A stretch of DNA of 64,000 nt from Candidatus Omnitrophota bacterium (GCA_041653115.1 JBAZGA010000007.1:1646-65645); one strand, 5' to 3'. Shown: positions 2,830 through 52,262, counted from the stretch's first letter. The notes: generated by a model from the letters alone, not told the origin. A program made the numbers and translations.

Positions 2830-2873
2830 CCGGCAGGCGTAAATATAAAAAACTCTTGACAGATAATTATTTT

Positions 2874-2900
2874 GTGTTACTATTTTTATAAAAGTAACAC
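2874..2900. promoter_or_regulatory. perfect palindrome GTGTTACT-N11-AGTAACAC overlapping the nikR promoter (TTGACA 2866-2871); candidate NikR operator
   Basis: 8-bp inverted arms read directly, AT-rich near-palindromic 11-bp spacer, located between -35 and start of nikR. Confidence 0.5.
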
Positions 2901-2925
2901 AAAGGGAGGAAGCGTGTCTGAAACG

Positions 2926-3333
2926 ATGCGTTTCGGGGTAGCAATGGATAAGCTGCTCCTGGACAAGTTCGATAAATTGATTATGAAGAAAGGTTATGAG
3001 AACCGCTCTGAGGCTATCCGCGATTTGGTGCGCAGCAATCTCATAGAGGAAGAATGGAAGGCCGGTAACCGCCAGACAGTCGGGACGGTAACCATCGTCT
3101 ACAACCACGGTGTCCGCGAACTGAGCGATATCTTGACTGAACTGCAGCACCGCTATCATAGCGAGATAATTTCCTGCATGCATGTGCATCTGGATGAGCA
3201 TAACTGCCTGGAAGTATTGGCGGTAAAAGGCAGGGCCGGTAAAATAAAGGTAATTGCCGATAAGCTCATCGCCACCAAAGGCGTGAAACACGGCAAACTG
3301 GTAATGACGACCCAAGGCAAGGGCTTGACTTAA
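2926..3333 (+). CDS. nikR: nickel-responsive transcriptional regulator NikR (ribbon-helix-helix + C-terminal metal-binding domain)
   Basis: N-terminal [18 protein letters not shown], His/Cys nickel ligands HVHLDEHNC in C-domain; start set to ATG 2926 after SD. Confidence 0.8.
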
Positions 3334-3409
3334 AAACTATTATTTTTTTTCTTAAGCGTAGCACGAATATTAAAAAAGTAACTAAAACAAAAGGAAAGGG
3401 GGTATATTT

Positions 3410-4771
3410 ATGGCAGGAGTAAAAAAAGCAATATTATTTTGTGCGTTTTTTTCTTTCTTAAGCTGCTCTTATGTCTTTGCCGATGACCTACCCATCAGGG
3501 ATGAGATTAATCAGCTTAAAGTCCGCATTCAAGCCCTGGAGAATAAGCTCGGCGAGCAGGACAAATGCATAAAAGAGCAGAAGCAGTGTATTTTAGAGCA
3601 GGACAGGAAGATTGCTGAATATGAATCAAGGCTTGTTCAGTTTGATACTGATTTGCATCGCCAAACTGGGGTCCCGATTAGTATTGCCGAAGGCTTAGAG
3701 ATTGGAGTAGGCGGCACGATGATCATCCAAGGGACAAATAATACTAATAATGCCACTGCTGACGTGACAAAGAAAGAGGGCCGCACTGATGCCTCTTATT
3801 CAGCGGATATTACTATAGGTAAAGAATTCGAAGAAGCAGGCGGCAGGGCCTTCTTGCATCTTGAAGCAGGCCAGGGCGCAGGCCTTGAGGATGACCTGAC
3901 ACTTTACTCAAATGTCAATCGCGACGCCGATAATGATAATAATGTCCGGCTTACCGAATTTTGGTATGAGCAGGCATTGTTCAAAGATAAAGCTGCTTTG
4001 ACTTTTGGCAAACTTGACCCTACCGCATATTTTGACAATAATGAAGTCGCCAATGACGAAACTACCCAATTCTTAGGCAGGATTTTCCGTAACTCACCCA
4101 GCATTGAATTCCCGGATAACACGGCAGGCATCCGTTTAGCGTATCTGCCGCTGGAGTGGCTGGAATTTGGCTACGGCGTTTTTGACGGAAACAGCGATTG
4201 GGAAAAAATCGGAGATAACTTCTTTAATATCGGGCAGGTTGCCTTTAAGACGAATTTTTTTGAGTTGCCCGGTAATTACCGCTTCCTCGCCTGGAATAAT
4301 AATGCATACCATACTAAGTGGCTGGCTGCGGAGAAAGAGAAAGAAGCTGCCTACGGCTTTGGATTAAGTTTTGACCAGAAAATCAGCGATATTGTAACGC
4401 TCTTTACCCGCTACGGCTGGCAGGACCCCAAAGTCTACAACCCCGAGATTCTGGCAAGCGGAGACCTTAACTATTCGCTTGAGCAGTCATGGAGCGCAGG
4501 TTTACAAGTTGAAGGAAAGCCCTGGGGCAGAGAAAAAGATGTGCTGGCCTTTGCCGTAGGCCAGGTAATTCCTTCGGATGATTACAAGCAGGCGACTGAG
4601 CGCCTGGCAAAGAGAGAAGGCCATCTCGAGCTTTATTACAGGATATTCGTAAACGACCATTTGTCGATCAGCCCGGACTTCCAGTATATCTGGAATCCTT
4701 TCGGAAAAGATGTTGCGGATGACACCAGCGCTATCTTTGTCGGCGGGATGAGGGCGCAGGTAGATTTTTAA
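3410..4771 (+). CDS. outer-membrane porin with signal peptide, N-terminal coiled-coil segment and beta-barrel ending in C-terminal Phe
   Basis: signal peptide, heptad-like QLKVRIQALENKLGEQDK, alternating beta-strand pattern, terminal ...AQVDF. Confidence 0.5.
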   Translation: MAGVKKAILFCAFFSFLSCSYVFADDLPIRDEINQLKVRIQALENKLGEQDKCIKEQKQCILEQDRKIAEYESRLVQFDTDLHRQTGVPISIAEGLEIGVGGTMIIQGTNNTNNATADVTKKEGRTDASYSADITIGKEFEEAGGRAFLHLEAGQGAGLEDDLTLYSNVNRDADNDNNVRLTEFWYEQALFKDKAALTFGKLDPTAYFDNNEVANDETTQFLGRIFRNSPSIEFPDNTAGIRLAYLPLEWLEFGYGVFDGNSDWEKIGDNFFNIGQVAFKTNFFELPGNYRFLAWNNNAYHTKWLAAEKEKEAAYGFGLSFDQKISDIVTLFTRYGWQDPKVYNPEILASGDLNYSLEQSWSAGLQVEGKPWGREKDVLAFAVGQVIPSDDYKQATERLAKREGHLELYYRIFVNDHLSISPDFQYIWNPFGKDVADDTSAIFVGGMRAQVDF

Positions 4772-4784
4772 AAGGAGGGAAATT

Positions 4785-5474
4785 ATGCACATACCCGACG
4801 GTTATTTGGGGCCGGCGACAAGCGGCATAATGTATGCCGTAATGCTGCCGATATGGGCGGCTGCCTCAAAAATTGTAAAAAAGACGCTTAAGGCAAGGCA
4901 GGTTCCTTTATTAGCCATTGGCGCGGCATTCAGTTTTGTGATTATGATGTTCAATGTACCGATCCCCGGAGGGACAACCGGCCATGCCGTAGGCGCGGTA
5001 TTGGCAGCGATATTGCTCGGCCCCTGGGCAGCTTGTATCGCCGTTACCGTGGCCTTGGTAATACAGGCATTATTGTTCGGTGACGGAGGGGTTACGGCAA
5101 TCGGCGCTAATTGTTTCAATATGGCGTTTATTGAAGTATTTACCGGCTATTACCTATATAAGCTTATCAGCGGGGCGTCTCTAATTACTTCAAATAGGCG
5201 GGTAATCGCTGCCGGTGTGGCCGGATATGCAGCTTTGAATATCGCTGCATTATCTACTGCAGTCATGTTCGGCATTCAGCCTTTATTACATAAGACCTCC
5301 AGCGGTCAGGCGCTTTATTGCCCATACGGCTTGAATGTAGCTATACCGGCGATGCTGGGTGAACATCTGCTGATATTCGGCTGGGTTGAAGCAATTATTA
5401 CCGCGCTGGTGGTTAAATACCTGCAAAAGCAAGACCCCTCTCTTCTTGAGGCCGCAGAGGAGGTGTCCCTATGA
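4785..5474 (+). CDS. cbiM: ECF-type cobalt/nickel transporter substrate-capture subunit CbiM/NikM
   Basis: canonical N-terminus MHIPDGYL, multiple TM helices. Confidence 0.85.
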   Translation: MHIPDGYLGPATSGIMYAVMLPIWAAASKIVKKTLKARQVPLLAIGAAFSFVIMMFNVPIPGGTTGHAVGAVLAAILLGPWAACIAVTVALVIQALLFGDGGVTAIGANCFNMAFIEVFTGYYLYKLISGASLITSNRRVIAAGVAGYAALNIAALSTAVMFGIQPLLHKTSSGQALYCPYGLNVAIPAMLGEHLLIFGWVEAIITALVVKYLQKQDPSLLEAAEEVSL

Positions 5475-5803
5475 AGACTACGACTAAACTATGGATAGGA
5501 ATAGGAATTTTAATTTTACTTTCACCTTTAGGAATTTTTCTGCCCGAGCATTTTCAGGCAGGCGATGCCTGGGGCGAATGGGGAGCCGATAGTTTTCAAG
5601 AATTACTCGGATACGTTCCGCAGGGACTTCAGAAGCTCTCCGGCCTCTGGAGCGCGCCTATTCCCGACTATGCCTTTAAGGGGTGGGAAGAAAAAGGATT
5701 CGGCAGCTTAAGTTTCGCCTATATAGCCTCAGCCGTAATCGGTATTCTTATCACTGCCGGCGTAGTGTTATTAATCGGCAAGCTGTTAAGCAAAAAAGAG
5801 TGA
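5471..5803 (+). CDS. small 2-TM membrane component associated with CbiM (CbiN/PDGLE-like)
   Basis: two TM helices flanking a periplasmic loop, overlaps cbiM stop (ATGA). Confidence 0.45.
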   Translation: MKTTTKLWIGIGILILLSPLGIFLPEHFQAGDAWGEWGADSFQELLGYVPQGLQKLSGLWSAPIPDYAFKGWEEKGFGSLSFAYIASAVIGILITAGVVLLIGKLLSKKE

Positions 5804-5827
5804 TTCTGAATAATAGGAAGCATTCAT

Positions 5828-6808
5828 TTGGCAAAAAAGGCAGAGGTTATTATCTTGACCGGTGGCGCCGGTTTTATCGGCAGTTGCTTCCTGTGGAGGC
5901 TTAATCAGGAAGGCATTGAGAATGTAATTGTTGTTGATAATTTGGCTGATACCTGCAAGTGGAAGAATCTTGCCGGTAAAAAATTTATTGATTATATCCG
6001 GAAAGAAGATTTCCTGGATATCCTTGAATCAGGAAAAATCCGTCGCGTTAGAAGGGTTGTCCACCTTGGCGCCTGCAGTTCAACCGTCCTCAACGACGCC
6101 GCCTACTTCCTGAAGAACAATTACGAATACTCTAAACGCCTGGCAGCTTGGGCAGAGCGGCATCGCGTAAAGTTCATTTACGCTTCTTCTGCTGCCACTT
6201 ACGGCGATGGCAATAACGGCTATGACGACGCAGAAAGCAAGCTGCCGGGTCTCAGGCCGCTTAATATTTACGGTTATTCAAAGCACCTCTTTGACCTCTG
6301 GATGTGGAAACGCGGCCTGCTTAAGAAAGCAACCGGTTTTAAATTCTTTAATGTCTTTGGGCCCAATGAATATCATAAGGGCGAAATGATGAGCGTTATT
6401 TGCAGGCATTTCGCCGAGATTAAATCCGGCAAGCCGCTGCGCCTTTTTAAGTCATACCGCCCGGAATATAGAGACGGCGAGCAAAAGCGGGATTTTATCT
6501 ATGTGAAGGACGCCGTGAAGGCAGTAATCTATTTTTTTAACAGGCCTGATAAAGCAGGCCTCTTTAATTTGGGCACGGGAATGGCCCGCAGTTGGAACGA
6601 TTTAGCCAGGGCGGCATTTTCCGCTCTTGACAAAGAGCCGAAAATAGAATATGTTGGAATGCCTGCGGAGATAATGGACAAATACCAGTATTTTACGCAG
6701 GCGCATACCGGGAAATTAAATAATTCCGGCTGCCCTTGTGAATTTATGACTCTGGAAGATTCAGTTAAGGACTATTCAACCTATCTTAAGGCAGGCGGAT
6801 ATTTATAA
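5828..6808 (+). CDS. hldD: ADP-L-glycero-D-manno-heptose-6-epimerase
   Basis: TGGAGFIGS Rossmann motif, YASSAATYGDG, YGYSK active-site region; TTG start with AGGAAG RBS. Confidence 0.85.
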   Translation: MAKKAEVIILTGGAGFIGSCFLWRLNQEGIENVIVVDNLADTCKWKNLAGKKFIDYIRKEDFLDILESGKIRRVRRVVHLGACSSTVLNDAAYFLKNNYEYSKRLAAWAERHRVKFIYASSAATYGDGNNGYDDAESKLPGLRPLNIYGYSKHLFDLWMWKRGLLKKATGFKFFNVFGPNEYHKGEMMSVICRHFAEIKSGKPLRLFKSYRPEYRDGEQKRDFIYVKDAVKAVIYFFNRPDKAGLFNLGTGMARSWNDLARAAFSALDKEPKIEYVGMPAEIMDKYQYFTQAHTGKLNNSGCPCEFMTLEDSVKDYSTYLKAGGYL

Positions 6809-6822
6809 ATAAAGGCGGACTT

Positions 6823-7209
6823 ATGCATGACTTAAAATTTGCCCGGCAGATAATTGCTGCCTTAGAGGAGACATTAAAAAAATGGCCTGTTGCTAAGCCG
6901 GTTATCTCGCTTACCGCGCATGTCAGCCTAAGCCCTTTTAGTCATGTGGGCGCGCAGAGGTTAAAAGAAACTTTTGAGCTATTGGCTGAAGCTGAAGGGT
7001 TTCCTCCGGTTAGGCTTTCCGTGAAGATAAGGGAAATCGAAATATTTTGTCAGCACTGCCGCGGCCGTTCAAAAGTCGTGCAGCCGGCGGTTATTTGCCC
7101 GCGCTGCAGAAGCGAAGATATCCGGGTTTTTTTAAAGGAGGAATTTGTGGTTGATGCGATAGAAATAGAAACTAGCCCCGCGTCATCTCAAGAAAAGGAG
7201 GCGCGATGA
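6823..7209 (+). CDS. hypA: HypA/HybF-like nickel metallochaperone (zinc-ribbon)
   Basis: N-terminus MHDLKFARQIIAAL (MHE-motif family), CxxC...CxxC zinc site near C-terminus. Confidence 0.65.
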   Translation: MHDLKFARQIIAALEETLKKWPVAKPVISLTAHVSLSPFSHVGAQRLKETFELLAEAEGFPPVRLSVKIREIEIFCQHCRGRSKVVQPAVICPRCRSEDIRVFLKEEFVVDAIEIETSPASSQEKEAR

Positions 7210-7562
7210 GAAGGTTTATTCTCTATTTATTCAGGTGGCAATTAAGCACCCCCATCCTTTGGCTTGCGGTGCGTAATATGGGAACCGGCGTCTGGTCGAC
7301 GATTACCGCCAATTTAATCGGAGGGGTAATCTTTTTTTGGGTTGATAAGTTTATCTTCACTGCCAAGGCGGTTGAGGTTTGGCACATCAAAGAGGGCAGG
7401 TGCGATAATTGCGGGGCAACCTCGCATTTATGGAGGCTGGTCAAGACCGCCGGCTATGACCGCAGCAGCGCCCAACCCCTCTTTTTATGCATGAAATGCT
7501 CAAAAGAGAAAACCGAAGCATTAAGGGCAAAGGGGATTCCGGTAAGGGGCAAAAGCAGGTGA
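7206..7562 (+). CDS. small membrane protein (2 TM) with C-terminal CxxC...CxxC zinc-ribbon, unknown function
   Basis: hydrophobic N-terminal half, CDNCG and CMKCS motifs; overlaps hypA stop. Confidence 0.4.
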   Translation: MRRFILYLFRWQLSTPILWLAVRNMGTGVWSTITANLIGGVIFFWVDKFIFTAKAVEVWHIKEGRCDNCGATSHLWRLVKTAGYDRSSAQPLFLCMKCSKEKTEALRAKGIPVRGKSR

Positions 7563-7597
7563 CTGGTTTTATAAATTAGAAAGGAGTTTGTGAGACG

Positions 7598-8440
7598 GTG
7601 CAAAGGAATAATTTCATCGAGCGTTCTCTGGCAGGCGCTCTCTCTTTTTTAAGAGAATCGATTTTTGCCGATGAATACGCGCTGAAAAAAGGCCTGCTGC
7701 AATCTCTGGACAGCCGGGTTAAGGCCGCTACCTTTCTCGTCTTTATTATTCAGGCGCTGTTGATCAAGCAAGCCGTCCTTTTATTCTGCCTTTATGCCTT
7801 TTGTTTATTATTGGCCCGGCTCTCCAATATCCGGCTGGGGTTTTTCCTGCAGCGGACCTGGATATTTATGCCGCTTTTTTCGCTCTTCATCGCCCTGCCG
7901 GCATTGTTCAGCATTTTTACCCCCGGAGAAGCGCTGCTTAGTTTTAAAATCGCAGGAATTCAGCTGATTATTACCCGGCAGGGTTTAGGCGGAGCGTTTT
8001 TGTTTATTATGCGCGTAATCACCTGCGTATCGTTTGTCGTGCTTTTAAGCATTACCACCCGGCATTTTACATTGCTTAAAGTTTTACGTACATTTAAAGT
8101 GCCTCAGGTATTCGTAATGACCGCGGGTATGTCCTACCGTTATATTTATCTTTTTGTCGGAATTATCGAAAATACCTATCTGGCGCTGAAAAGCCGCATC
8201 GGCACCAGAATTCATCGCAGGAAGGGGCAGCACCTGGTGGCCTGGAATATCGCCTATCTTTGGCAGCGCTCTTACCATTTGAATGAGGATGTCTATAAAG
8301 CAATGCTTTCGCGGGGCTACAGCGGAGAGCCGGTAGTGGCGGATGATTTTAAGATTAAAGCCCGAGACCTCTTGTGGATATGCGTGGTTTTTATGGTTTT
8401 TATATCGGTATTATATCTGAATTACCGGATGAAAATATAA
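7598..8440 (+). CDS. cbiQ: ECF transporter transmembrane (T) component CbiQ
   Basis: polytopic membrane protein directly upstream of cbiO; GTG start with AAAGGAG RBS. Confidence 0.65.
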   Translation: MQRNNFIERSLAGALSFLRESIFADEYALKKGLLQSLDSRVKAATFLVFIIQALLIKQAVLLFCLYAFCLLLARLSNIRLGFFLQRTWIFMPLFSLFIALPALFSIFTPGEALLSFKIAGIQLIITRQGLGGAFLFIMRVITCVSFVVLLSITTRHFTLLKVLRTFKVPQVFVMTAGMSYRYIYLFVGIIENTYLALKSRIGTRIHRRKGQHLVAWNIAYLWQRSYHLNEDVYKAMLSRGYSGEPVVADDFKIKARDLLWICVVFMVFISVLYLNYRMKI

Positions 8441-8446
8441 ATCAAT

Positions 8447-9256
8447 ATGGATAATTTTATTTTTGAATTAAAAGATGTCTATTTTTCGTATTTGGGCAAA
8501 TACCCCGCCTTATGCGGATTAGATATCGGGATTAAAGCGGGAGAGAAAGTGGCGGTTATCGGCGCGAACGGCTCCGGCAAGTCCACGCTTTTGCATATGC
8601 TGGACGGTTTGATTTTTCCCGACAAAGGCACAATCAAGGCTTTTGGGGAGGAGTTAAAAGAGGGTTTATTCAACGAGGAAAGTTTTACCCGCAGCTTTAG
8701 AAAGAAGGTGGGCTTAGTCTTTCAGAATTCTGATATCCAGTTATTCTGCCCGACAGTAAAAGAAGATATCACTTTCGGCCCTTTGCAGCTGGGGGTAGGA
8801 AGAGAAGAGGTCGAGAAGCGCCTGCTGAGTTTAGCGGATATTTTGGGAATTGCAGGGCTGCTGGACCGCTCGCCGCACCAGCTCAGCATCGGCGAAAAGC
8901 GCAAAGTCGCTATCGCCTCAACACTGGCAATTGACCCTGAAGTCATAATCTTGGATGAACCGACAGCGGGGTTAGACCCCCTGACCAGCCGGCATATCAT
9001 CGATTTTTTAATCGAGGCAAACCTCTCGGGTAAGACCATTATTACTTCTACGCAGGACCTGCACATCGTCGAAGAAATAGCCGATAAAATTTATGTTTTT
9101 AACGCGGAAAAGAAGATTATTAAATCCGGCCTTGCCAGCGAAATCCTCCTCGATACGGAATTCTTGCGGGAAAATAACCTGATCCACATCCACCGGCACA
9201 AGCATCGGGATACAATCCACACCCATCCGCACCATCACCTTGACCACCACCAATAA
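8447..9256 (+). CDS. cbiO: ECF transporter ATPase CbiO with C-terminal His-rich tail
   Basis: Walker A GANGSGKST, ABC signature LSIGEKRK, Walker B ILDEP; tail HIHRHKHRDTIHTHPHHHLDHHQ. Confidence 0.85.
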   Translation: MDNFIFELKDVYFSYLGKYPALCGLDIGIKAGEKVAVIGANGSGKSTLLHMLDGLIFPDKGTIKAFGEELKEGLFNEESFTRSFRKKVGLVFQNSDIQLFCPTVKEDITFGPLQLGVGREEVEKRLLSLADILGIAGLLDRSPHQLSIGEKRKVAIASTLAIDPEVIILDEPTAGLDPLTSRHIIDFLIEANLSGKTIITSTQDLHIVEEIADKIYVFNAEKKIIKSGLASEILLDTEFLRENNLIHIHRHKHRDTIHTHPHHHLDHHQ

Positions 9257-9333
9257 ATAGGCTAAATACTAGAGGTTGCCTTAAGTTATGCTTTATGATA
9301 AAATAGCCTTGTTTTCCAAAAAGGAGATACCGG

Positions 9334-10077
9334 ATGGTAAATTTCTTATGGGCGATTACGGCCAGCATTATCGTCAGCCTGGTTTCTTTAGTGGGGATTT
9401 TCAGCCTGCTGATTAAAGAAGGATGGTTGAATAAAATACTGCTCATTTTAATCGGCTTTTCCGCCGGGGCTTTAATCGGCGGCGCATTCCTGCACCTTTT
9501 GCCCGAGGCCTTAGAGGAACTGGACAGCCTGTATGTTTTTTCCTGTGTTATTTTAGGGTTTATTATTTTCTTTGTCCTGGAGCGCTACTTTTACTGGCGC
9601 CACTGCCATAACGGCGTATGCAGCATCCACGCTTTTACTTATCTTAATTTAATCGGCGACGGGATTCACAATTTTACCGATGGCTTGGTTATCGGCGCAA
9701 GTTTCTTAGTCGGTACCCATTTCGGAGTGATTACTACCGTGGTAATTATTTTTCATGAAATACCCCAGGAGATCGGCGATTTCGGGGTGCTGGTGTACGG
9801 AGGCTTTACCAAGGTAAGGGCCCTCATTTTTAATTTCATTTCCGCCTTAAGCTGTATATTAGGCACCGTCGCCGGATATTTAGCCGCGGCGAATATTGAG
9901 AATTTTTCGCCGTACCTCCTCTCCTTTACGGCGGGGGGGTTTATTTATATCGCTGCCTGCGACCTGATCCCCGAATTGCATAAACAGCCCGATTTGAAAA
10001 AAAGCCTGGCATCGATGCTGGCTTTTCTCCTGGGCATCCTCTTTATTCTTTCGGCAAGGGCCATGCAAGGCCATTAA
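9334..10077 (+). CDS. ZIP-family divalent metal transporter (ZupT-like)
   Basis: HEIPQEIGDF motif typical of ZIP family, 8 predicted TM. Confidence 0.75.
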   Translation: MVNFLWAITASIIVSLVSLVGIFSLLIKEGWLNKILLILIGFSAGALIGGAFLHLLPEALEELDSLYVFSCVILGFIIFFVLERYFYWRHCHNGVCSIHAFTYLNLIGDGIHNFTDGLVIGASFLVGTHFGVITTVVIIFHEIPQEIGDFGVLVYGGFTKVRALIFNFISALSCILGTVAGYLAAANIENFSPYLLSFTAGGFIYIAACDLIPELHKQPDLKKSLASMLAFLLGILFILSARAMQGH

Positions 10078-13463: not shown

Positions 13464-14741
13464 ATGAAGCTTTTATCCTTAGCCATATTTTTGCTCTGTT
13501 ATGCTTGTATCACTTATTTTATGAACTGCCAGAAATATAAGTATGTGCTTCTGGCGGTATATTCAGGCGTAAGCGCGCTTTTGTTGGCCAGGGCGGTTAA
13601 CTTAACTCAAGCCTTGTCTTCCATAAACATCAATGTCTTGGGCGTATTCCTGGGCACGATGGTTTTATCCAGCCTTTTTATCTATTCGGGCGTGCCGGTG
13701 TATCTGGCCGCGGCTTTAGTCAATAAATCCAAAAACGTATCTATGGCGATGCTCTTGGTTTGCGGCCTTGCCGGCTTTATCTCCAGTTTTACCGAGAACG
13801 TGGCTACGGTTTTAATCGTCGCCCCCATTGCCCTGGAAATCGCAAAAAAAGTAAAAATTAACCCTGTTCCCTTATTAATCGGCGTAGCACTCTCCAGCAA
13901 TTTGCAGGGCGTGGCGACGATGATCGGCGATTCGCCGAGCATTATTTTAGCGATGGAGTCGGGGATGAACTTTAATGATTTCTTTTGGATGCAGGGCAGG
14001 CCGGGGATATTTTTTGCCGTGGAATTAGGCGCGCTTGGTGCGTTTTTTGTTTTGTGGCTGTTATTTAAAAGGCATAACCAGGCAGTGCAGAAAATAGAGA
14101 TAGCAAAACCAAAAACCTGGGTCCCTGCCATACTGATGTCTTTGATGGTCTTAAGCCTGGTGCTATCCTCGTTTATAAAGAATCGGCCGCAATATAGCAT
14201 TGCCTTTATCTGTTTATTTTGGGCGGTAGTAGCATTGGTCTGGCATGAATTAAGCCATCGCGAGAGCATTTCTTTAGTCAGGAATTTGGACTGGCAGACT
14301 TTCTTTTTCTTAATCGGGATATTTATCCTGGTGGGAAGCCTGACCTATAACGGCATCATCGAGGATATTGCCGGCAAGATATCCTCGATTGCGGGTAAAA
14401 ATGCGCTATTTGCCTATATGCTGATTGTCTGGATTTCCGTGCTGATCTCGGCTTTTGTCGATAATATACCCTATACCATTGCTATGATCCCGGTAGCAAA
14501 AATTGTTGCAAGTAATTTAGGGCTCCCCATGTATCCTTTTTTATTCGGCCTTTTAATCGGCACCTGCCTCGGCGGCAACATTACCCCGATAGGCGCTTCC
14601 TGTAATGTGGTCACGATGGGTATTTTGCGCAGGCAGGGTTATAAATTAAGGTTTAATGAATTCGTAAAAATAGGTTTACCTTTTACATTTGTCGCCGTAC
14701 TAATAGGGGCTTTATTTGTCTGGTTTGTCTGGGCTAAATAA
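13464..14741 (+). CDS. anion permease of the ArsB/NhaD superfamily
   Basis: about 12 TM helices with internal duplication, no soluble domains. Confidence 0.5.
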   Translation: MKLLSLAIFLLCYACITYFMNCQKYKYVLLAVYSGVSALLLARAVNLTQALSSININVLGVFLGTMVLSSLFIYSGVPVYLAAALVNKSKNVSMAMLLVCGLAGFISSFTENVATVLIVAPIALEIAKKVKINPVPLLIGVALSSNLQGVATMIGDSPSIILAMESGMNFNDFFWMQGRPGIFFAVELGALGAFFVLWLLFKRHNQAVQKIEIAKPKTWVPAILMSLMVLSLVLSSFIKNRPQYSIAFICLFWAVVALVWHELSHRESISLVRNLDWQTFFFLIGIFILVGSLTYNGIIEDIAGKISSIAGKNALFAYMLIVWISVLISAFVDNIPYTIAMIPVAKIVASNLGLPMYPFLFGLLIGTCLGGNITPIGASCNVVTMGILRRQGYKLRFNEFVKIGLPFTFVAVLIGALFVWFVWAK

Positions 14742-14752
14742 AGGATTAAAAA

Positions 14753-15871
14753 ATGGCAAAAGACCCGGTTTGCGGAATGCAGGTAAATGAAGAGAGCGCG
14801 ATTAAATTAACTAAAGGCGCGCAGGATTATTTTTTCTGCAGCCCCGGCTGCAGAGATAAATTCCAGAAAAAGCCTTTTTTCAAGAACCGGTTATTTATCA
14901 CCAGTTTAATTCCCGCTGTCCTGGTTATCGCTTCGTTTTTCTTTCCTCCCCTGGAACCGTTCCGCAAAGTATTTTTGATGTATTTAAAAACCATCTGGTG
15001 GGCGGTGATTTTAGGATTATTCTTGGGCGGGCTCATTGATTATTATATCCCGCGCGAATATATTTCAAAAATTCTCTCCAAGCATTCGCCCTTTACTATT
15101 TTTAACGCGGTATTTTTAGGATTCCTGATGAGCGCCTGCAGCCACGGGATCCTGGCTTTATCCATCCAACTGCATAAAAAGGGAGCTTCTAACCCTGCGG
15201 TAGTGAGTTTTCTTCTCGCCAGCCCCTGGGCAAATTTAACGATTACCGTGATGTTAATCAGCCTTTTTGGATTAAAAGGGTTATTTATCATTATTGCCGC
15301 GATAATCGTAGCGATCAATACCGGTTTTATATTCATGTTTTTAGAAAAAAAGGGGCTGATTGAAAAAAATAAAAATGCGGTAGAGGTGCCTGAGGGATTC
15401 TCGATATTGGGTGATTTAAGGCTGCGCCTCAAGAACTACAGTTTCGGCTTACGCCGTTTGATCTACGATTTTTCAGGAACAATCAAGGGGGCTTTAACGC
15501 TTGCCGATATGGTCTTATGGTGGATTATCCTGGGTATATTCATCGCCAGTGTATCCGGCGCATATATCCCGGTGCATTTTTTTCATAAATTTATGGGGCC
15601 GACTTTTTTAGGACTCTGGGTGACCTTGGCCCTGGCTACCGTAATCGAGGTCTGTTCGGAAGGCTCATCTCCGTTATCTTTTGAGATTTACCGGCAGACC
15701 GGAGCCCTGGGGAATAGCTTTGTTTTTTTAATGGCGGGTGTCGCTACCGATTATACCGAAATCGGGCTTTTATGGGCTAATGTCGGCAGGCGCGTTGCCT
15801 TATGGCTGCCTGTTGTTACCGTGCCCCAGGTTATCCTTATCGGGTATCTGTCCAACGTTATTTTTAAATAA
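14753..15871 (+). CDS. ArsP/DUF318-like permease with N-terminal YHS metal-binding domain
   Basis: DPVCGMQV...YFFCSPGC YHS motif followed by polytopic permease with paired CSxG motifs. Confidence 0.5.
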   Translation: MAKDPVCGMQVNEESAIKLTKGAQDYFFCSPGCRDKFQKKPFFKNRLFITSLIPAVLVIASFFFPPLEPFRKVFLMYLKTIWWAVILGLFLGGLIDYYIPREYISKILSKHSPFTIFNAVFLGFLMSACSHGILALSIQLHKKGASNPAVVSFLLASPWANLTITVMLISLFGLKGLFIIIAAIIVAINTGFIFMFLEKKGLIEKNKNAVEVPEGFSILGDLRLRLKNYSFGLRRLIYDFSGTIKGALTLADMVLWWIILGIFIASVSGAYIPVHFFHKFMGPTFLGLWVTLALATVIEVCSEGSSPLSFEIYRQTGALGNSFVFLMAGVATDYTEIGLLWANVGRRVALWLPVVTVPQVILIGYLSNVIFK

Positions 15872-31444: not shown

Positions 31445-33238
31445 ATGCAGAAAGAGAAGGCATGCGGTTTATTTTTTATAATTATTATTTTATCCGCTGG
31501 GCAAGCCCTCTTTGCCGGGGAAGAGCTATCCCTGGATTTAGAGCCCATCGTGATTACCAAAAGCGATATCTATCTTACACGAGCCTATATTTTAAAATCC
31601 GATACCCTGCTTCCTTTCGCGTCCTGGAGCGAGTCATTAACTGCTGCTCCTTTGGATTTACAGAGCCGGACCCTCAAGGCAGATATCCAGACAGATTTTT
31701 CTTTACGCGGCTCAAGCTACCAGGGCGTTTCGCTCCTGATTGACGGCCAGCGCGTCAATGACCCAAAACTTGGGCATTACAATTGCGACCTTGCCATAAC
31801 CAGAGAGGACATTGAGAGGATAGAGGTAATTCCCGGAGCAGGCTCTTCGATATTCGGTCCCGATGCCATAGGCGGGGCAGTAAATATCATCCTCAAGAAG
31901 CCGCGAGAAAAAAAGAGAATCCTGGAGTCCAGTTTCGGCTCATACCAGACAAAGTCAGGTATCTTCAGCATTACGGAAAGAAAAGATAATTTAGGGGTGA
32001 GACTTTCTCTGGAAAGGCAGGAATCCGGAGGATTTTATTACGATACGGATTTCAAACGCCTCGCCGCTACTCTTAATTCATCTCTAGATATACCGATAGG
32101 AGAGTTTAATCTGGGACTGGGTTATCTGGAAAAAGAATTCGGCGCTTATGATTTTTATACTCCGGGCAGGGGCTATGCCTCAAAAGAATGGATTAAAAGC
32201 TATCTTCTAAATACAGGCTTTAATTTGAAGAGAGACGGCCTGATTATAAAACCAAATTTTTTATGGCGCAGGCACGAGGATAAATTTATGTTAGATAAAG
32301 ACAGGCCTGCTCTTTCCCTTAACCACCACCATAGCGATGTATATACCCCGAATATTTATCTTCAGAAGGAAACTGAAGCCCTGGGCAGGATTGGCTTGGG
32401 GCTAGAATACGGCGAAGAACAAATCAGTTCTACGGTTTTAGGCAAACATCAGCGCAGCCATAATAGTATATTTATAGATGACAACAAAGAGCTGAATCCC
32501 AAGTTATCTTTGGGCTCCTCTGCCCGTAGCGACGATTATGCCGGCTTTGACCGGGCTTATACCGGTTCGTTAAACTTAAGATATAAAATTTCTGGCGGGT
32601 ATTCACTGCATCTTGGCGTATCCCGGAGTATCCGTATCCCGACTTTTCATGAACTCTATTATGAAGATGTTACCACCACCGGAGATGCCGGTTTATCTTG
32701 CGAGAAATCATTAAATTATGAATCAGGGCTAGATTATAAGCAGGAAAATTTTTTAGCCGGGACAACATTCTTTTTGAGGCAGGAAAAAGGTTTTATCGAT
32801 TGGGTAAAACGCGCCCCTGCGCAATCCAAATGGAAAACGGAAAATATCACTGAGGCGGAAGTATACGGCATAGAAAATTATTTAAGATCAAAGATAAATC
32901 AAAAACTTAATTTAAATTCCAATTATACCTATATCGATAAACGCATAAATGACCGGGGCTATCTTTATAAATACGGCCCAAATTATATTAAACACCTTTT
33001 CAATACAATGCTGAGTTTTAACCTTCCCTTTGGCGAGCAGGCCGTAGGATTGACTTATAAGAAAAAGCCTGGCCGGCGTGGCTGGCTCCTTTTGCACACG
33101 GCCTTTTCTTATAACTTAAATAAGACCTCACAGGTTTTCTTAAAAATTACTAACCTCTTGAATGTTGAATACCAGGAGATCGAAGGTATCCCCCAGCCAG
33201 GAAGATGGCTTGAGGCCGGCCTCCGCTTCGAATGGTAA
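31445..33238 (+). CDS. TonB-dependent-receptor-like outer membrane protein (plug + small barrel, C-terminal Trp)
   Basis: signal peptide, plug-like LIDGQRVND, AIGGAVNIIL, terminal FEW. Confidence 0.5.
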   Translation: MQKEKACGLFFIIIILSAGQALFAGEELSLDLEPIVITKSDIYLTRAYILKSDTLLPFASWSESLTAAPLDLQSRTLKADIQTDFSLRGSSYQGVSLLIDGQRVNDPKLGHYNCDLAITREDIERIEVIPGAGSSIFGPDAIGGAVNIILKKPREKKRILESSFGSYQTKSGIFSITERKDNLGVRLSLERQESGGFYYDTDFKRLAATLNSSLDIPIGEFNLGLGYLEKEFGAYDFYTPGRGYASKEWIKSYLLNTGFNLKRDGLIIKPNFLWRRHEDKFMLDKDRPALSLNHHHSDVYTPNIYLQKETEALGRIGLGLEYGEEQISSTVLGKHQRSHNSIFIDDNKELNPKLSLGSSARSDDYAGFDRAYTGSLNLRYKISGGYSLHLGVSRSIRIPTFHELYYEDVTTTGDAGLSCEKSLNYESGLDYKQENFLAGTTFFLRQEKGFIDWVKRAPAQSKWKTENITEAEVYGIENYLRSKINQKLNLNSNYTYIDKRINDRGYLYKYGPNYIKHLFNTMLSFNLPFGEQAVGLTYKKKPGRRGWLLLHTAFSYNLNKTSQVFLKITNLLNVEYQEIEGIPQPGRWLEAGLRFEW

Positions 33239-48020: not shown

Positions 48021-48716
48021 ATGAAAGAAAAGATTCTGATTGTTGATGACGAAAAAGATATAGTCAGGATGCTTGACTATAACCTGAAGAAGGACGGATT
48101 CAGGACGCTTTCCTGCCATGACGGAGAGGACGCATTGGACCTCGCCGGCCGCGAGCACCCGGACTTAATTATCCTGGACCTGATGCTGCCTGGTATGGAC
48201 GGTTTGGAAGTTTGTAAGACCCTGAAAAAAGAAAATAAAACTTCAAATATCCCGATAATTATGCTGACTGCCAAGGCCCAGGAGGCGGATAAGGTAGTGG
48301 GGTTAGAGTTGGGCGCGGATGATTACGTAACCAAGCCGTTCAGCCCGCGTGAGTTAATTGCCAGGGTAAAGGCGGTTTTACGCCGGGTGAAAGAAAAAGA
48401 AAAATTACCGGAAATTTTAAGGGTCGGCGAATTAACTATCGATTTTTCTAAAATTCAGGCCAGCGTAAAAAATAAACCGCTTGAACTTACCGCAAAGGAA
48501 TTCGAATTGTTAACCGCCTTGCTTAAAGTAAAAGGAAGGGTCCTCTCCCGCGATTATCTTTTAGACAGCATCTGGGGTTTTGACCATGCGCTGGAAATTC
48601 AAACCCGCACTGTTGACGTGCATATCCGGACGCTGCGCAAAAAACTGGGAAAAGAAGCAAAGCGGATTATTACCGTGAAGAACTACGGCTACCGCTTTGA
48701 TACAGATGAAGATTAA
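48021..48716 (+). CDS. phoB: OmpR/PhoB-family response regulator
   Basis: receiver Asp in IILDLMLPGMDG, winged-helix C-terminus; genomic context with phoR/pst. Confidence 0.8.
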   Translation: MKEKILIVDDEKDIVRMLDYNLKKDGFRTLSCHDGEDALDLAGREHPDLIILDLMLPGMDGLEVCKTLKKENKTSNIPIIMLTAKAQEADKVVGLELGADDYVTKPFSPRELIARVKAVLRRVKEKEKLPEILRVGELTIDFSKIQASVKNKPLELTAKEFELLTALLKVKGRVLSRDYLLDSIWGFDHALEIQTRTVDVHIRTLRKKLGKEAKRIITVKNYGYRFDTDED

Positions 48717-50484
48717 GAAGCACAGCCTTAAATTAAAATTAATCTTTTCTTATGTCCTCATCATCGCGCTTTCTTTCGGGCTCGCCGCCTATTTTTTAAA
48801 CAGAAATCTAGAAGAAAATTCCCTGCGGGAAATTAAATCCTCGTTAATCAGCCAGGGCTGGTTGGTTGTAGCCCAAATCCCTCAAGACGACATCAAGAAT
48901 GGAAACACGCCACGCCTGCAAACATTAGCAAAGACTTTAAGTGCAAGTATAAAATCCCGCTTGACTATAATCAGTAGACAAGGCAAGGTTTTAGCCGATT
49001 CTGAAAAACCGGAAAGCGGTGTTCTGAAGATGGAGAACCACGCCCAGCGGCCGGAAATAAAAGAAGCTTTAGCCGGGGCAATCGGAGAAGAAATCCGCTA
49101 TTCTTCAACACTTAAGATGGATATGCTTTATGTGGCTTTGCCCGTCCCGGAGAAAGGCCAAATTTTAGGCGTAGTCCGCTTAGCGCTTCCTCTTGCCAGC
49201 GTGCAAAAAACATTATTCAGCGTAAGAAAAGCAATTTTATTCAGCATCCTTTTTGCTTTAGGTTTAAGTCTTGTCCTGGGTTCTTTATTGACGCAGGCGA
49301 CGATTAAACCGATTAATAAGATTATCCTTGCTTCGCGTAGATTCTCCGCGGGAGAATTCAGCCATAAAATATTAATTGATACCCGGGATGAAATCGGGGA
49401 GCTCGCGGCTACCTTAAATAAGATGGCAGAAGGGCTGGAGGCTAAAATTAAGGAAGTAGAAATACAGAACCAGCACCTCAGGGCAATCTTACGGACTATG
49501 GTAGAGGGTATTATCGTTACGGATAAGTCCGGCCGCATTATTTCGATTAATCCTACGGTGGAAAAGATATTTAATATTACTCAACAAGGCGCTGAAGGCA
49601 AGCTTCTTCTGGAAGCGGTGCGCAATAACGACATTGCGGAGATTATCAACGCTGTTTTAAAAAACGGTAAATTTATCTCCCAGGAGCTTAATCTGGTATT
49701 GCCGGCGCAGGGGATATTTAAAATTAACGCCTCTCCTATTTTTGAAAAAGACGCGGTAATCGGATGTTTATTGGTAATTCACGACATAACCGAAATGCGC
49801 AGGTTAGAAACGATGCGCCGTGATTTTGTGGCTAATGTTTCACACGAATTAAAGACGCCGCTTACCTCTATTAAGGGGTTTGTAGAGACGCTCCTTGAGG
49901 GAGCGATGGAAGACAGGGAAAACAGCCGCCATTTTTTGGGGATTATCCAGAATCATAGTGAGCGGCTGAATAACCTGATCAATGATTTACTCGACCTTTC
50001 GCACATTGAATCCAGAGAAATAAAATTAGAAATCACCGATTTCAGCCTGCGGGGATTGACGGAAGAGGTCTTATCCGGTTTTAAGTCAAAAGCTAAAGAG
50101 AAGGCCCTTGAGATAACCAACGCATTAGATAAGGCTTTATCGGTGAAGGCGGACAAAGATAAGATAGAGCAGGTTCTGACTAACCTGGCGGATAATGCGA
50201 TTAAGTTCAACCGGCAGAACGGGACGGTTAGGATTTATTCCGAGGGCTTAGGAGAAAAGATCAAGGTTACCATAGAAGATTCCGGTATCGGCATCCCTGC
50301 CAAAGATCTCTCCCGCATCTTTGAGCGTTTTTACCGCGTGGATAAAGCGCGCTCGCGCGAATTAGGCGGCACGGGCCTGGGGCTTTCCATCGTCAAGCAT
50401 ATCGTAGAATTGCACGGCGGTTCGGTCGGCGTCGAAAGCAGCGAGGGCCTAGGCTCAAAATTCTGGTTCACCCTTCCGCAGTAA
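48697..50484 (+). CDS. phoR: sensor histidine kinase PhoR-like (TM, HAMP, PAS, HisKA, HATPase)
   Basis: ANVSHELKTPL H-box, GTGLGLSIVK G-box. Confidence 0.8.
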   Translation: MIQMKIKKHSLKLKLIFSYVLIIALSFGLAAYFLNRNLEENSLREIKSSLISQGWLVVAQIPQDDIKNGNTPRLQTLAKTLSASIKSRLTIISRQGKVLADSEKPESGVLKMENHAQRPEIKEALAGAIGEEIRYSSTLKMDMLYVALPVPEKGQILGVVRLALPLASVQKTLFSVRKAILFSILFALGLSLVLGSLLTQATIKPINKIILASRRFSAGEFSHKILIDTRDEIGELAATLNKMAEGLEAKIKEVEIQNQHLRAILRTMVEGIIVTDKSGRIISINPTVEKIFNITQQGAEGKLLLEAVRNNDIAEIINAVLKNGKFISQELNLVLPAQGIFKINASPIFEKDAVIGCLLVIHDITEMRRLETMRRDFVANVSHELKTPLTSIKGFVETLLEGAMEDRENSRHFLGIIQNHSERLNNLINDLLDLSHIESREIKLEITDFSLRGLTEEVLSGFKSKAKEKALEITNALDKALSVKADKDKIEQVLTNLADNAIKFNRQNGTVRIYSEGLGEKIKVTIEDSGIGIPAKDLSRIFERFYRVDKARSRELGGTGLGLSIVKHIVELHGGSVGVESSEGLGSKFWFTLPQ

Positions 50485-50969: not shown

Positions 50970-52262
50970 ATGAAAAAGCTGTTATGTCTGATATTGGCAG
51001 TGTGTTTTTGGGTATCGTTGATAATAACCAATTCCTATGCCGGAGAAATTGACATCCTTTTGCAGAAGTTGGTCGAAAAGGGTGTTTTAACCGGCGCAGA
51101 AGCCCAGCAGATTAAGGTTGAGACCAAAGAGGCGGTTAAGAAAGAAATCGTTGCAGGTAAATCCGAAACTTTGCCCGCCTGGGTTCAGGCAATCAAGATA
51201 AAGGGGGATTTCAGGGGAAGGTATCAGTATAACCACGGCAAATCAACAGCCACTTCGACAACCGAGCGCCACAGGGCGCGCATCAGATTACGCCTCGGCG
51301 TGGAAGGTAAGGTAAATGACAAGCTGAAAGTCGGCGTTGGTTTGGCTACGGGCTTAAATTCGACCGAGAGTAGCAGTACGTTAAGCGCTGATTATGCGCG
51401 CTCGACGAACCAGACTTTATATGAAGGTTTTTCAAAGAAAGGCATAGGTCTGGATTATGCTTATGCCGAATACGCGTTTTCGCCCTGGGGCAATTTTATC
51501 GGCGGCAAATTTAAGAATCCCCTCTGGGAGCCGGGTGACCTGATTTGGGATACGGATATAAATCCTGAGGGCGCAGCGCTTAATTTAAATAAGAAATTAA
51601 TGCTGGGCGGGTTAGGATTAAACGTATTCTCTACTACGGGAGTTTTCCCTCTTGATGAAAGTAGCTCTAGCGGAGACGATCCGATGATGTATGTCCAGCA
51701 AGCGGGATTAACCCATAATTTAACCGATACCATATCACTGAAAACCGCACTGGCTTATATGTATACCTCAACGCAAGGAGACACCCTGGACGGCACCACA
51801 AGCACAAATACTACTCCCCTTGAAGACTTCAGTATGTTGACTCCTGCCGTAGAGCTGAAATTCAAGGAGCCTTTTAAGTTTCTGGGTGTGGGTTTCTTAA
51901 ACATACCGAGCTTGACGCTTTTCGGAGAATATGTAAAGAATACCCATGCGCCGAATGACAAGAAGGATACCGGCTTTATGACCGGCTTAAAATTTGGCGC
52001 GGAAAAGATAGAAGGCTGGGGAGATTGGCAGGCAAGTTATAACTTTGCCGCTTTACAAAAAGATGCCATATTGGATATATTGCCTGATTCTGACCGTTAT
52101 GGCGGACAGACCGGTGTAAGGGCCCATGAAGCCAAGTTTTCATACGGATTAGGCAAGAATACCTGGTTTGATTTGGATATCTACCGGGCTCAAAGATGGC
52201 GTGCCGGAGTTGCCAGGGCTCCAGAGACAGTATTTCAGGCGGATTGGAACATGAAATTTTAG
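50970..52262 (+). CDS. outer-membrane porin (signal peptide, N-terminal helical segment, barrel ending in Phe); likely phosphate-associated by context
   Basis: architecture similar to porin at 3410; terminal ...WNMKF; upstream of pstS. Confidence 0.5.
   Translation: MKKLLCLILAVCFWVSLIITNSYAGEIDILLQKLVEKGVLTGAEAQQIKVETKEAVKKEIVAGKSETLPAWVQAIKIKGDFRGRYQYNHGKSTATSTTERHRARIRLRLGVEGKVNDKLKVGVGLATGLNSTESSSTLSADYARSTNQTLYEGFSKKGIGLDYAYAEYAFSPWGNFIGGKFKNPLWEPGDLIWDTDINPEGAALNLNKKLMLGGLGLNVFSTTGVFPLDESSSSGDDPMMYVQQAGLTHNLTDTISLKTALAYMYTSTQGDTLDGTTSTNTTPLEDFSMLTPAVELKFKEPFKFLGVGFLNIPSLTLFGEYVKNTHAPNDKKDTGFMTGLKFGAEKIEGWGDWQASYNFAALQKDAILDILPDSDRYGGQTGVRAHEAKFSYGLGKNTWFDLDIYRAQRWRAGVARAPETVFQADWNMKF

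Follow-up and report, generated by a model that had tools for sequence, protein, structure and literature searches.

A predicted NikR-controlled nickel uptake locus of a Candidatus Omnitrophota bacterium with an OprB-type porin, a His-tailed transporter ATPase and an unannotated zinc-ribbon membrane protein

A 64,000-nucleotide stretch of DNA from a Candidatus Omnitrophota bacterium (GCA_041653115.1 JBAZGA010000007.1:1646-65645; the whole stretch is referred to below as the window, and positions are counted from its first letter) harbours a locus headed by nikR, which we regard, on balance, as rather likely to be a nickel-repressed uptake operon. It comprises ten open reading frames (ORFs) arranged head to tail on the + strand at 2872-10077 (2914-10077 if nikR is read from the GTG at 2914), in the order nikR, OprB-type porin gene, cbiM/nikM, PDGLE gene, hldD, HypA-like gene, the gene of a 118-amino-acid (aa) membrane protein designated here zr118, cbiQ, a His-tailed cbiO and a ZIP permease gene. 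Gene families were assigned by means of Pfam and NCBIfam models, the bit scores being compared with the model cutoffs, and all ten ORFs of an initial annotation of the window were recovered in the same places and in the same order. The arrangement is seen again in dozens of related loci. A porin-alignment scan of one genome per species led to the identification of 79 of them; all related loci, apart from remote homologs examined separately, come from one phylum, and individual loci are denoted below by L and a number.

NikR, its operator and the nikR-porin spacer

The first gene of the locus, nikR (2914..3333, + strand), encodes a 139-aa protein combining a ribbon-helix-helix domain (RHH_1, PF01402) with NikR_C (PF08753, E = 1.3e-31), and reaches 212 bits with the NCBIfam model NF003381 (cutoff 105). 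The start of this gene was originally placed at 2872; the most likely start, however, is the GTG at 2914, since the NCBIfam alignment of the longer ORF begins only at residue 16 and a GGGAGG sequence is located just upstream. A sigma-70-like, TG-extended promoter (TTGACA-N16-TACTAT, 10/12 matches in a consensus scan) was found on the + strand at 2856..2883, and a NikR operator, GTGTTAC-N13-GTAACAC, lies over its -10 hexamer at 2874..2900. This box is perfect (14/14 match) and is the sole such match in the 64 kb window. The published delta-proteobacterial NikR consensus is a 27-28 bp inverted repeat, GTGTTAC-N13/14-GTAACAC (PMC545781), and the operator of the window agrees exactly with the signal derived for that group.

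A box with at most three mismatches is present 30-50 nt before nikR in 50 of the 56 assessable related loci. Meanwhile, 578 kb of independent loci containing zr118 yielded 13 boxes with at most two mismatches, ten of which precede nikR and one of which is situated 48 nt before zr118. The description of the locus as NikR-headed is thus well founded, given the perfect predicted operator over the nikR promoter and its retention among the relatives. Nickel rather than cobalt is the predicted substrate, judging from the regulatory context, that is, the NikR box and the lack of a cobalamin or other riboswitch in the window: no Rfam family (cobalamin and NiCo riboswitches included) reached the threshold anywhere in it, and riboswitch control was rejected on these grounds. 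The core of the locus, consisting of NikR, its operator and the NikMNQO transporter, is a textbook example of a known system.

The spacer of 76 nt between nikR and the porin gene contains, on the + strand, an element (3338..3384) composed of a T-run (3343-3350), a half-site GTAGCAC (3358-3364), 13 further nucleotides and a half-site GTAACTA (3378-3384). In its general form, the element comprises a T-run and, 3' of it, two directly repeated NikR half-sites, GTA[AG]CAC-N13-GTA[AG][CT]A. The T-run together with a half-site was detected in 50 of the 56 related spacers (0 expected from shuffles), and the direct half-site repeat in 47 of them (0.015 expected from shuffles). Among the 41 copies of the element found in 1.83 Mb of loci, 34 are located immediately upstream of a porin gene, four immediately after nikR and three on the minus strand. 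The three minus-strand matches all fall into the nikR upstream region, two of them no more than 10 bases from the nikR ORF start, while the space separating nikR from the first structural gene holds all the other copies. The element is probably a second NikR operator or the promoter region of the structural genes, and repression of the operon by nickel is predicted from the operator over the nikR promoter, from this putative second one and from the conservation of both.

The T-run 3' of nikR was also considered as an intrinsic terminator. This possibility was rejected because no hairpin precedes the run (minimum free energy of -4.9 kcal/mol, worse than that of 192 out of 200 shuffles), and none of the intergenic gaps of the locus contained a terminator in a consensus scan. 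The porin gene, which had been regarded as the first gene of the operon, is its first structural gene, the first position being occupied by nikR.

Porin, importer, HypA-like protein and zr118

The porin gene (3410..4771, +) codes for a 453-aa outer-membrane protein of the OprB family (PF04966, E = 3e-30, residues 146-453) with an N-terminal coiled coil and an N-terminus, MAGVKKAILFCAFFSFLSCSYVFA-DD, which is read as a signal peptide. The sole match among solved structures is a weak one to Pseudomonas OprB (4GEY/4GF4). Homologs form more than 120 Omnitrophota clusters at 69-83% identity; in the KEGG-style naming of JGI, three of them are called "high affinity Mn2+ porin", and "coiled-coil protein SlyX" is used on others. 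The barrel is rich in invariant acidic residues. As reported originally, 13 nt separate the porin stop codon from the cbiM ATG. The coupling of the porin to the transporter genes is further supported by the conserved half-site element in front of it and by the presence of nikR directly upstream of the porin gene in 48 of 72 assessable loci, including 13 in which no cbiM follows. Altogether, 71 of the 79 porin loci adjoin nikR/nik, Zur-like/znu or ZIP genes: 55 are nik-linked, 11 are linked to Zur/znu/ZIP, five to both nik and Zur/znu, and the remaining eight to neither. The term "Zur-like" denotes here a reading of the Fur-family sequence and of the znuABC context rather than the result of a family-model scan. 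In a separate lineage of 36% GC (L175), a promoter and a NikR box with one mismatch are located directly before a shorter OprB porin gene, which heads a DUF4198(nikK)-CbiM-HI_1622_C-CbiQ-ATPase operon.

Elsewhere in the window, a Porin_5 gene (50970-52262) directly precedes pstS (52287-53099) and a pstC-like permease gene (53157-54065), and follows a gene for a PAS/HAMP histidine kinase (48697-50484). Since this porin gene also heads a transporter gene pair, porin-first transporter operons may be a habit of this genome.

The importer is of the energy-coupling factor (ECF) type. Its S component is encoded by nikM/cbiM (4785..5474, +; the N-terminus, MHIPDG, supplies the Met-His metal-binding end typical of this component), with E = 1.6e-62 for PF01891 and 351 bits for PRK11909 (cutoff 225). 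The next gene (5471..5803, +), the start of which overlaps the nikM end by 4 nt, encodes a small NikN-type membrane protein of 110 aa containing a PDGLE domain (PF13190, 39.3 bits, cutoff 27). The label "cbiN-like" previously attached to it had to be abandoned, as neither Pfam nor NCBIfam gave a CbiN family match. In PRK07331, a model of fused CbiM, the protein matches the C-terminal part (positions 228-322), and a fused nikM-PDGLE version exists in relatives such as L008. Judging from such fused nik(MN) genes, the PDGLE protein would correspond to NikN, which points to a transporter of the Nik rather than of the Cbi type. The T component is the product of nikQ/cbiQ (7598..8440, +; Pfam CbiQ; TIGR02454, 141.7 bits, cutoff 111.8), and the ATPase that of nikO/cbiO (8447..9256, +; Pfam ABC_tran), whose best NCBIfam models are those of ECF/cobalt transporter ATPases, with scores below the equivalog cutoffs. 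Two transporter types are encountered 3' of the porin gene in related loci, namely the split CbiM plus PDGLE type (75-94% identity) and a divergent fused one (33-39%).

NikO ends, as the initial annotation had it, in a His-rich tail, HIHRHKHRDTIHTHPHHHLDHHQ, in which 11 of 23 residues are histidines (residues 247-269; 9185..9253, +). Related loci provided 16 distinct complete CbiO sequences of the window type (L002 among them), and every one of these ends in the position-specific motif NNL[IV]H[IV]H[RS]H[KR]H...H.HPH.H.EHH, so that the tail is a real feature and not noise. Ten divergent CbiO sequences (36-41% identical) lack it. Its presence in all window-type sequences and its absence from the divergent type indicate a conserved, lineage-specific addition. 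Solved CbiO and EcfA structures align only to about residue 245, and the tail has no counterpart there. By its composition, the tail would be expected to bind metal. Some of the divergent-type ATPases (those of fused NikMN transporters) end in a CPxC motif, as observed in L016, L048 and L051 (QQCPVCRKES, QGCPVCSK and QRCPACSTPKK, respectively).

Between nikN and nikQ lie three genes, the first of which, hldD (5828..6808, +), encodes ADP-glyceromanno-heptose 6-epimerase (TIGR02197, 382 bits, cutoff 274.6). The second codes for a HypA-like metallochaperone of 128 aa (6823..7209, +; PF01155, 53.8 bits, cutoff 28.9) with the N-terminus MHD and the cysteine motif C76-x2-C79...C92-P-x-C95. His2 of the N-terminal site is thereby kept and Asp stands in place of Glu3, relatives having either MHD or MHE, while the four cysteines C76, C79, C92 and C95 are invariant. 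MH[DE], LSPFSHV and CxxC...CPxC are retained in 25 of 26 distinct HypA-like sequences (one of which was read from a Val codon as VHD); in the exception, which at 25% identity is also the most divergent of the set, ELSGL replaces LSPFSHV. A phmmer search of the protein against the PDB returned no HypA match; the fold was then matched by structure comparison. The AlphaFold2 model has a predicted local distance difference test score (pLDDT) of 83.6, and its top 14 Foldseek matches in the PDB are all HypA (probability 0.98-1.00), with template modelling scores of 0.55-0.69 for nine monomer/complex entries and of 0.42-0.51 for the chains of the 3A44 dimer. Going by this model, the product is a genuine, if divergent, HypA-fold protein, for which the family predicts a chaperone role.

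Close relatives of the HypA variant of the window are few, four having been found among 5.8 billion proteins. The loci of two of these relatives lie outside nik operons, where the gene occurs as hldD-hypA-zr118 or as an unscanned ORF followed by hypA-zr118. The hypA and zr118 genes are coupled by an ATGA overlap, as proposed in the initial annotation. An AGGAGG sequence is located 5 nt upstream, and the 4-nt overlap is kept in the four loci that were read for the close HypA relatives (two distinct contexts). The accompanying claim that hypA is embedded in the transporter operon stood only in part: translational coupling to zr118 is conserved, but the position as such is weak evidence, because the nikN-nikQ junction is permissive in the relatives and hldD-hypA-zr118 also exists outside nik operons. 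This junction contains nothing, zr118 only, hypA only, hldD-hypA, or hldD-hypA together with 3-6 kb of other genes. The pdgle-hldD-hypA order is complete in ten related porin loci, and an eleventh contig ends within hldD. Possibly, hldD is a passenger in a junction that tolerates unrelated inserts, yet it is found next to hypA and zr118 repeatedly and in more than one order.

Two side observations concern this region. In L017 (13845-18872), L063 (12445-18996), L054 (13510-20224) and L022 (14168-15955), housekeeping inserts of 3-7 kb separate nikN (or hypA) from nikQ within the nik operon; their genes are those of glycine cleavage (gcvT/H/PA/PB), lipoate ligase (lplA), lipA, thyX or a MetH-like protein. 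In L167 (1-8740) and L168, hldD-hypA-zr118 follows genes for a CobN-like chelatase, a ChlI/D-like AAA+VWA protein and exbB-exbD-tonB, and the 16 kb that were read around it contain no nik genes.

The third gene of the junction, zr118 (7206..7562, +), encodes two transmembrane (TM) helices and a predicted cytoplasmic zinc ribbon, C66-x2-C69...C95-x2-C98. Its product has no family match in Pfam or NCBIfam. Of its 787 homologs, all the organism-named ones among the matches listed belong to Omnitrophota/Omnitrophica, share 70-94% identity and bear no annotation. Invariant residues are Y7, R10, W11, D47, I50, C66, C69, R77 and C95. The AlphaFold2 model (pLDDT 78) combines a helical hairpin with a beta-hairpin ribbon and a helix. 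A search for a known fold or family was unsuccessful, since PDB profile searches gave generic zinc fingers only (E >= 0.05) and Foldseek returned nothing below E = 0.4. In some relatives the 2-TM module is duplicated in tandem, which suggests that zr118 may work as a dimer.

A metagenome scan for zr118 yielded 80 loci, 36 of which have at least 1.5 kb on both sides. In 16 of these 36 well-flanked loci a nickel-related gene lies on the same strand within 1.5 kb. The neighbourhood of zr118 and nickel genes takes 11 different arrangements and involves both transporter types: nikN-zr118-nikQ was found in nine loci, nikO-zr118 and zr118-hypA in seven loci each, nikO-zr118-ZIP and nikR-zr118 in three each, nikR-zr118-porin in two, and nikR-zr118-nikM, nikM-zr118-nikQ, nikN-zr118-hldD, hldD-zr118 and hypA-zr118-nikQ in a single locus each. 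In addition, the nik operon of the separate 36%-GC lineage (L175) ends with the gene of a homolog of 50% identity. The 11 arrangements and the occurrence in that lineage suggest that zr118 is a new component of the nickel regulon. Its product is probably a nickel-regulon membrane protein, with HypA, the transporter or NikR as the putative partner.

Several further contexts of zr118 were recorded. A protein resembling the metallo-beta-lactamase fold precedes the zr118-hypA pair in L136 (5628-7747), L137 (5601-7723) and L131 (2235-4466); it is itself preceded by a multi-TM protein of ~210 aa with conserved His or by a ZIP permease, and DnaJ-domain-like and methyltransferase-like proteins follow the pair. 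These assignments were made by eye, and the set may represent a second conserved metal-handling cassette. In Methanoregula (L171-L174), a 53%-identical homolog is located upstream of the trp operon, with CbiM ~7.5 kb downstream, a context which is uninformative.

The last of the ten genes (9334..10077, +; Pfam Zip, E = 3.4e-45) encodes a ZIP-family metal permease. It begins 77 nt 3' of nikO, and a promoter scan revealed a promoter-like site ahead of it (9276-9304). A ZIP gene comes after nikO or nikO-zr118 in L042, L047, L070, L071, L081, L089, L090, L099 and L109. In the rest of the window, genes for a CitMHS/ArsB-type permease and an ArsP_1 permease with an N-terminal YHS (metal-binding) domain (13464-15871), 3.4 kb 3' of the ZIP gene, form a possible metal/metalloid transport pair, and a TonB-dependent receptor gene (31445-33238) lies between a biotin-ligase/repressor-like gene and mnmA. 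All long non-shadow ORFs of the window (1-64000) are on the + strand, the minus-strand ORFs of at least 120 aa being nested in longer + strand ORFs without exception.

Weighing of alternative readings

A number of observations tell against a nickel operon in which the HypA-like protein and zr118 take part. The genes of the window are all co-directional and tightly packed; short intergenic gaps are weak evidence of an operon in such a strand-biased and compact stretch. The counts of loci are inflated by shared ancestry, as the related loci come from one phylum. In the window, the second spacer half-site is degenerate. The HypA-like protein falls under all NCBIfam HypA cutoffs (TIGR00100, 40.1 bits vs 88.1; likewise three other models). 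The larger ORFs of the 64 kb window, which were scanned, include no hydrogenase, urease, carbon monoxide dehydrogenase or hypB gene, and no genes for HypB or a nickel enzyme partner were seen beside hypA in the related loci inspected. In the case of zr118, 20 of the 36 well-flanked loci are not near nickel genes and lack a NikR box; these 20 loci have no recurrent neighbour in common. In L005 and L006 the gene adjoins that of a tadA-like deaminase, a 36%-identical homolog (L176/L177) resides in a phage-like region with DnaB, SNF2, sigma factor, Gad2 and DNA ligase, and a tandem-duplicated form sits in an unrelated context.

The initial annotation had suggested a dedicated nickel/cobalt outer-membrane channel, a model in which the porin would be selective for these metals and would have evolved for this transporter. 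The 13 nt between the porin stop and the cbiM start, the conserved nikR-porin pair and the NikR-type sites directly upstream of the porin gene all favour this view. Yet the closest porins (82-83% identity, L008-L010) occur in the order nikR-nik(MN)-Zur-like regulator-porin-znuABC, in which the porin is part of a Zur-like regulator-porin-znuABC unit, and other paralogs form such units as well, or porin-regulator or regulator-porin-ZIP units; in total, 16 of the 79 loci are linked to Zur-like/znu/ZIP genes. A distinct clade of nickel porins, which was sought, had to be rejected, as nik-linked and Zur-linked porins are intermixed in a neighbour-joining tree. The coiled coil (residues 25-90; window 3482-3679) occurs in a 2-Cys form, KC-x6-QC followed by DLHRQTG, and in a 0-Cys form, QDKYIATQ... 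followed by EEKLKRVPGEP. The Cys pair was rejected as a nickel-specific mark because both forms are present in nik and in Zur-like contexts alike, and it does not follow the nik linkage. A dedicated nickel/cobalt channel is hence an improbable explanation. Since the porin type is common to zinc regulons, the porin appears to be specific to metal limitation and not to nickel, and the best reading, by analogy, is that it belongs to a metal-limitation porin family, like MnoP and the Fur-box OprB porin of Geobacter. Both its selectivity and its actual regulation by metal are what we infer from this setting. As regards the tail of NikO, it might be a neutral low-complexity stretch that takes no part in nickel handling, given that His-rich ends are found in many proteins unrelated to metals. 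Against this, the pattern H-x-H-x-H-x-H ... H-x-H-P-H-x-H-x-E-H-H is kept position by position across proteins which are 60-73% identical overall, and the second CbiO type of the same phylum is devoid of the tail; a neutral tail seems very unlikely.

The place of the three genes of the nikN-nikQ junction is harder to judge. It is conceivable, though doubtful, that hldD, the HypA-like gene and zr118 simply landed in a permissive junction and have no link to nickel, the actual system being confined to nikR, the porin and nikMNQO. Such a view is consistent with the glycine-cleavage, lipoate, thyX or MetH-like genes which the same junction holds in relatives, with the direct succession of nikN and nikQ in L027, L028, L030, L033, L042, L070, L081 and L082, with the presence of hldD-hypA-zr118 away from nik genes in L167/L168, with the nature of hldD as a gene of a lipopolysaccharide-core enzyme, and with the uniformly co-directional genome. 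It does not fit well with the distribution of zr118, which is found beside nikR, porin, nikM, nikN, nikQ, nikO, hypA and ZIP genes in 11 orders, with both transporter types and also in the 36%-GC lineage, nor with the locus in which a NikR box stands directly before zr118; moreover, HypA is by family a nickel chaperone and recurs beside ZIP, nikO and nikN. Somewhat more plausible, but still tentative, is a role of zr118 as a membrane protein for regulation or sensing, or as an additional subunit of the transporter, acting on NikMNQO or NikR and not as a partner of HypA. The gene adjoins transporter genes or nikR in 27 loci vs hypA in eight, and directly follows nikR in six; the invariant R10, W11 and D47 are in or near the TM helices, and the tandem-duplicated 2-TM versions suggest a dimeric membrane module. 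On the other hand, no domain or fold match backs any function, and the hypA-zr118 overlap is conserved in one subfamily, the reverse order (zr118-hypA, seven loci) being found in another. The alternative, that zr118 is a dedicated nickel-trafficking part, is attractive but rather speculative: a dimeric 2-TM protein would use its ribbons to recruit the HypA-like chaperone or to gate NikQ/NikO, and nickel would pass from the His-tailed ATPase to the chaperone, bypassing the free cytoplasmic pool.

Relation to known systems and possible route of nickel

Taken as a nickel-repressed uptake operon, the locus would work as follows. When nickel is sufficient, Ni-NikR would bind the palindrome over its own -10 hexamer (2874-2900) and probably also the half-site repeat of the spacer, which would switch off the downstream genes. 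When nickel is scarce, the porin with its periplasmic coiled coil would raise the permeability of the outer membrane for hydrated divalent metal cations, and the ECF-type importer consisting of the split NikM and NikN (PDGLE), NikQ and NikO would be made, possibly along with the downstream ZIP permease. The (HX)n tail of NikO at the cytoplasmic face would most likely bind the incoming Ni2+ and serve either as a buffer or hand-off site or as a sensor for feedback (trans-inhibition). The HypA-like protein would act as a divergent nickel chaperone of the HypA fold, while zr118, whose 2-TM hairpins probably pair into a dimer with the zinc ribbons in the cytoplasm, may, as a best guess, act at the membrane with the importer and/or HypA. 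Any contact of zr118 with HypA or with the transporter is hypothetical, as is the direct hand-off from import to chaperone that the initial annotation had suggested.

ATPases of ABC (ATP-binding cassette) importers such as MetN and ModC possess C-terminal regulatory domains which mediate trans-inhibition, and HypB, UreE and SlyD carry His-rich metal-binding tails. The tail of NikO resembles the former in being a C-terminal extension of an ATPase, placed where the imported substrate appears, and the latter in its composition, with (HX)n motifs. In contrast to the folded domains of MetN and ModC, it is short and presumably unstructured.

To our knowledge, the passage of hydrated transition metals across the outer membrane is poorly understood, and besides TonB-dependent receptors only MnoP and a few copper/manganese porins are known. 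MnoP of Bradyrhizobium japonicum is a metal-regulated outer-membrane Mn2+ channel (Hohle et al. 2011, as cited in PMC6011978), and a predicted Fur-regulated OprB-family porin is encoded upstream of feoAB in Geobacter sulfurreducens (PMC545781). The Omnitrophota porin is comparable to both in that a porin-type channel under a metal repressor is coupled to an inner-membrane metal importer, a coupling predicted here from the genes. It differs in its regulators, NikR or a Fur-family (Zur-like) protein, and in its N-terminal coiled coil. According to the references listed in PMC11247825, FrpB4 and FecA3 of Helicobacter pylori are NikR-regulated TonB-dependent nickel receptors, and they resemble the present porin as outer-membrane parts of nickel acquisition within a NikR regulon. 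These are, however, energised 22-strand TonB-dependent transporters, whereas a passive OprB-type porin is predicted here.

In the case of the NikMNQO/CbiMNQO systems under NikR (Rodionov et al. 2004, PMC545781), the similarity extends to the M, N (PDGLE), Q and O components, the adjacent nikR and the identical operator consensus. In the window, however, M and N are separate proteins instead of a fusion, the structural genes begin with that of a porin, hldD, hypA and zr118 break up the operon, NikO has a conserved His tail, and a second operator-like element of direct half-sites is situated in front of the porin gene. The HypA-like protein shares with HypA/HybF (PDB 3A43, 5AUP, 5YXY, 6G81, 2KDX) the Pfam family, the predicted two-domain fold, the N-terminal Met-His and the CxxC...CPxC zinc site, but it begins with MHD and not MHE, scores under the NCBIfam equivalog cutoffs, and has a heptose epimerase and a membrane zinc-ribbon protein as its neighbours in place of hypB and hydrogenase genes.

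In the literature searched, no description was found of a porin shared by NikR and Zur-like regulons, of the direct-repeat operator element, of a conserved His tail on the ATPase or of zr118, and an Omnitrophota genomics paper makes no mention of porins and refers to nickel only for hydrogenases. With one porin family apparently controlled by NikR or by a Zur-like protein, beside Ni, Zn and ZIP importers, across a whole phylum, the Omnitrophota offer a comparative system for the study of metal-selective porins. The conserved His tail suggests buffering of, or feedback by, the substrate at the exit of an ECF transporter, which would be new for this class. Being highly conserved (70-94%) and unannotated, and having nickel genes as its only recurrent partners, zr118 is a candidate for the missing link between import and chaperone loading. 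If it indeed is such a link, then together with the NikR/Zur-shared porin it would make up an envelope-spanning route of metal acquisition from parts not previously linked.

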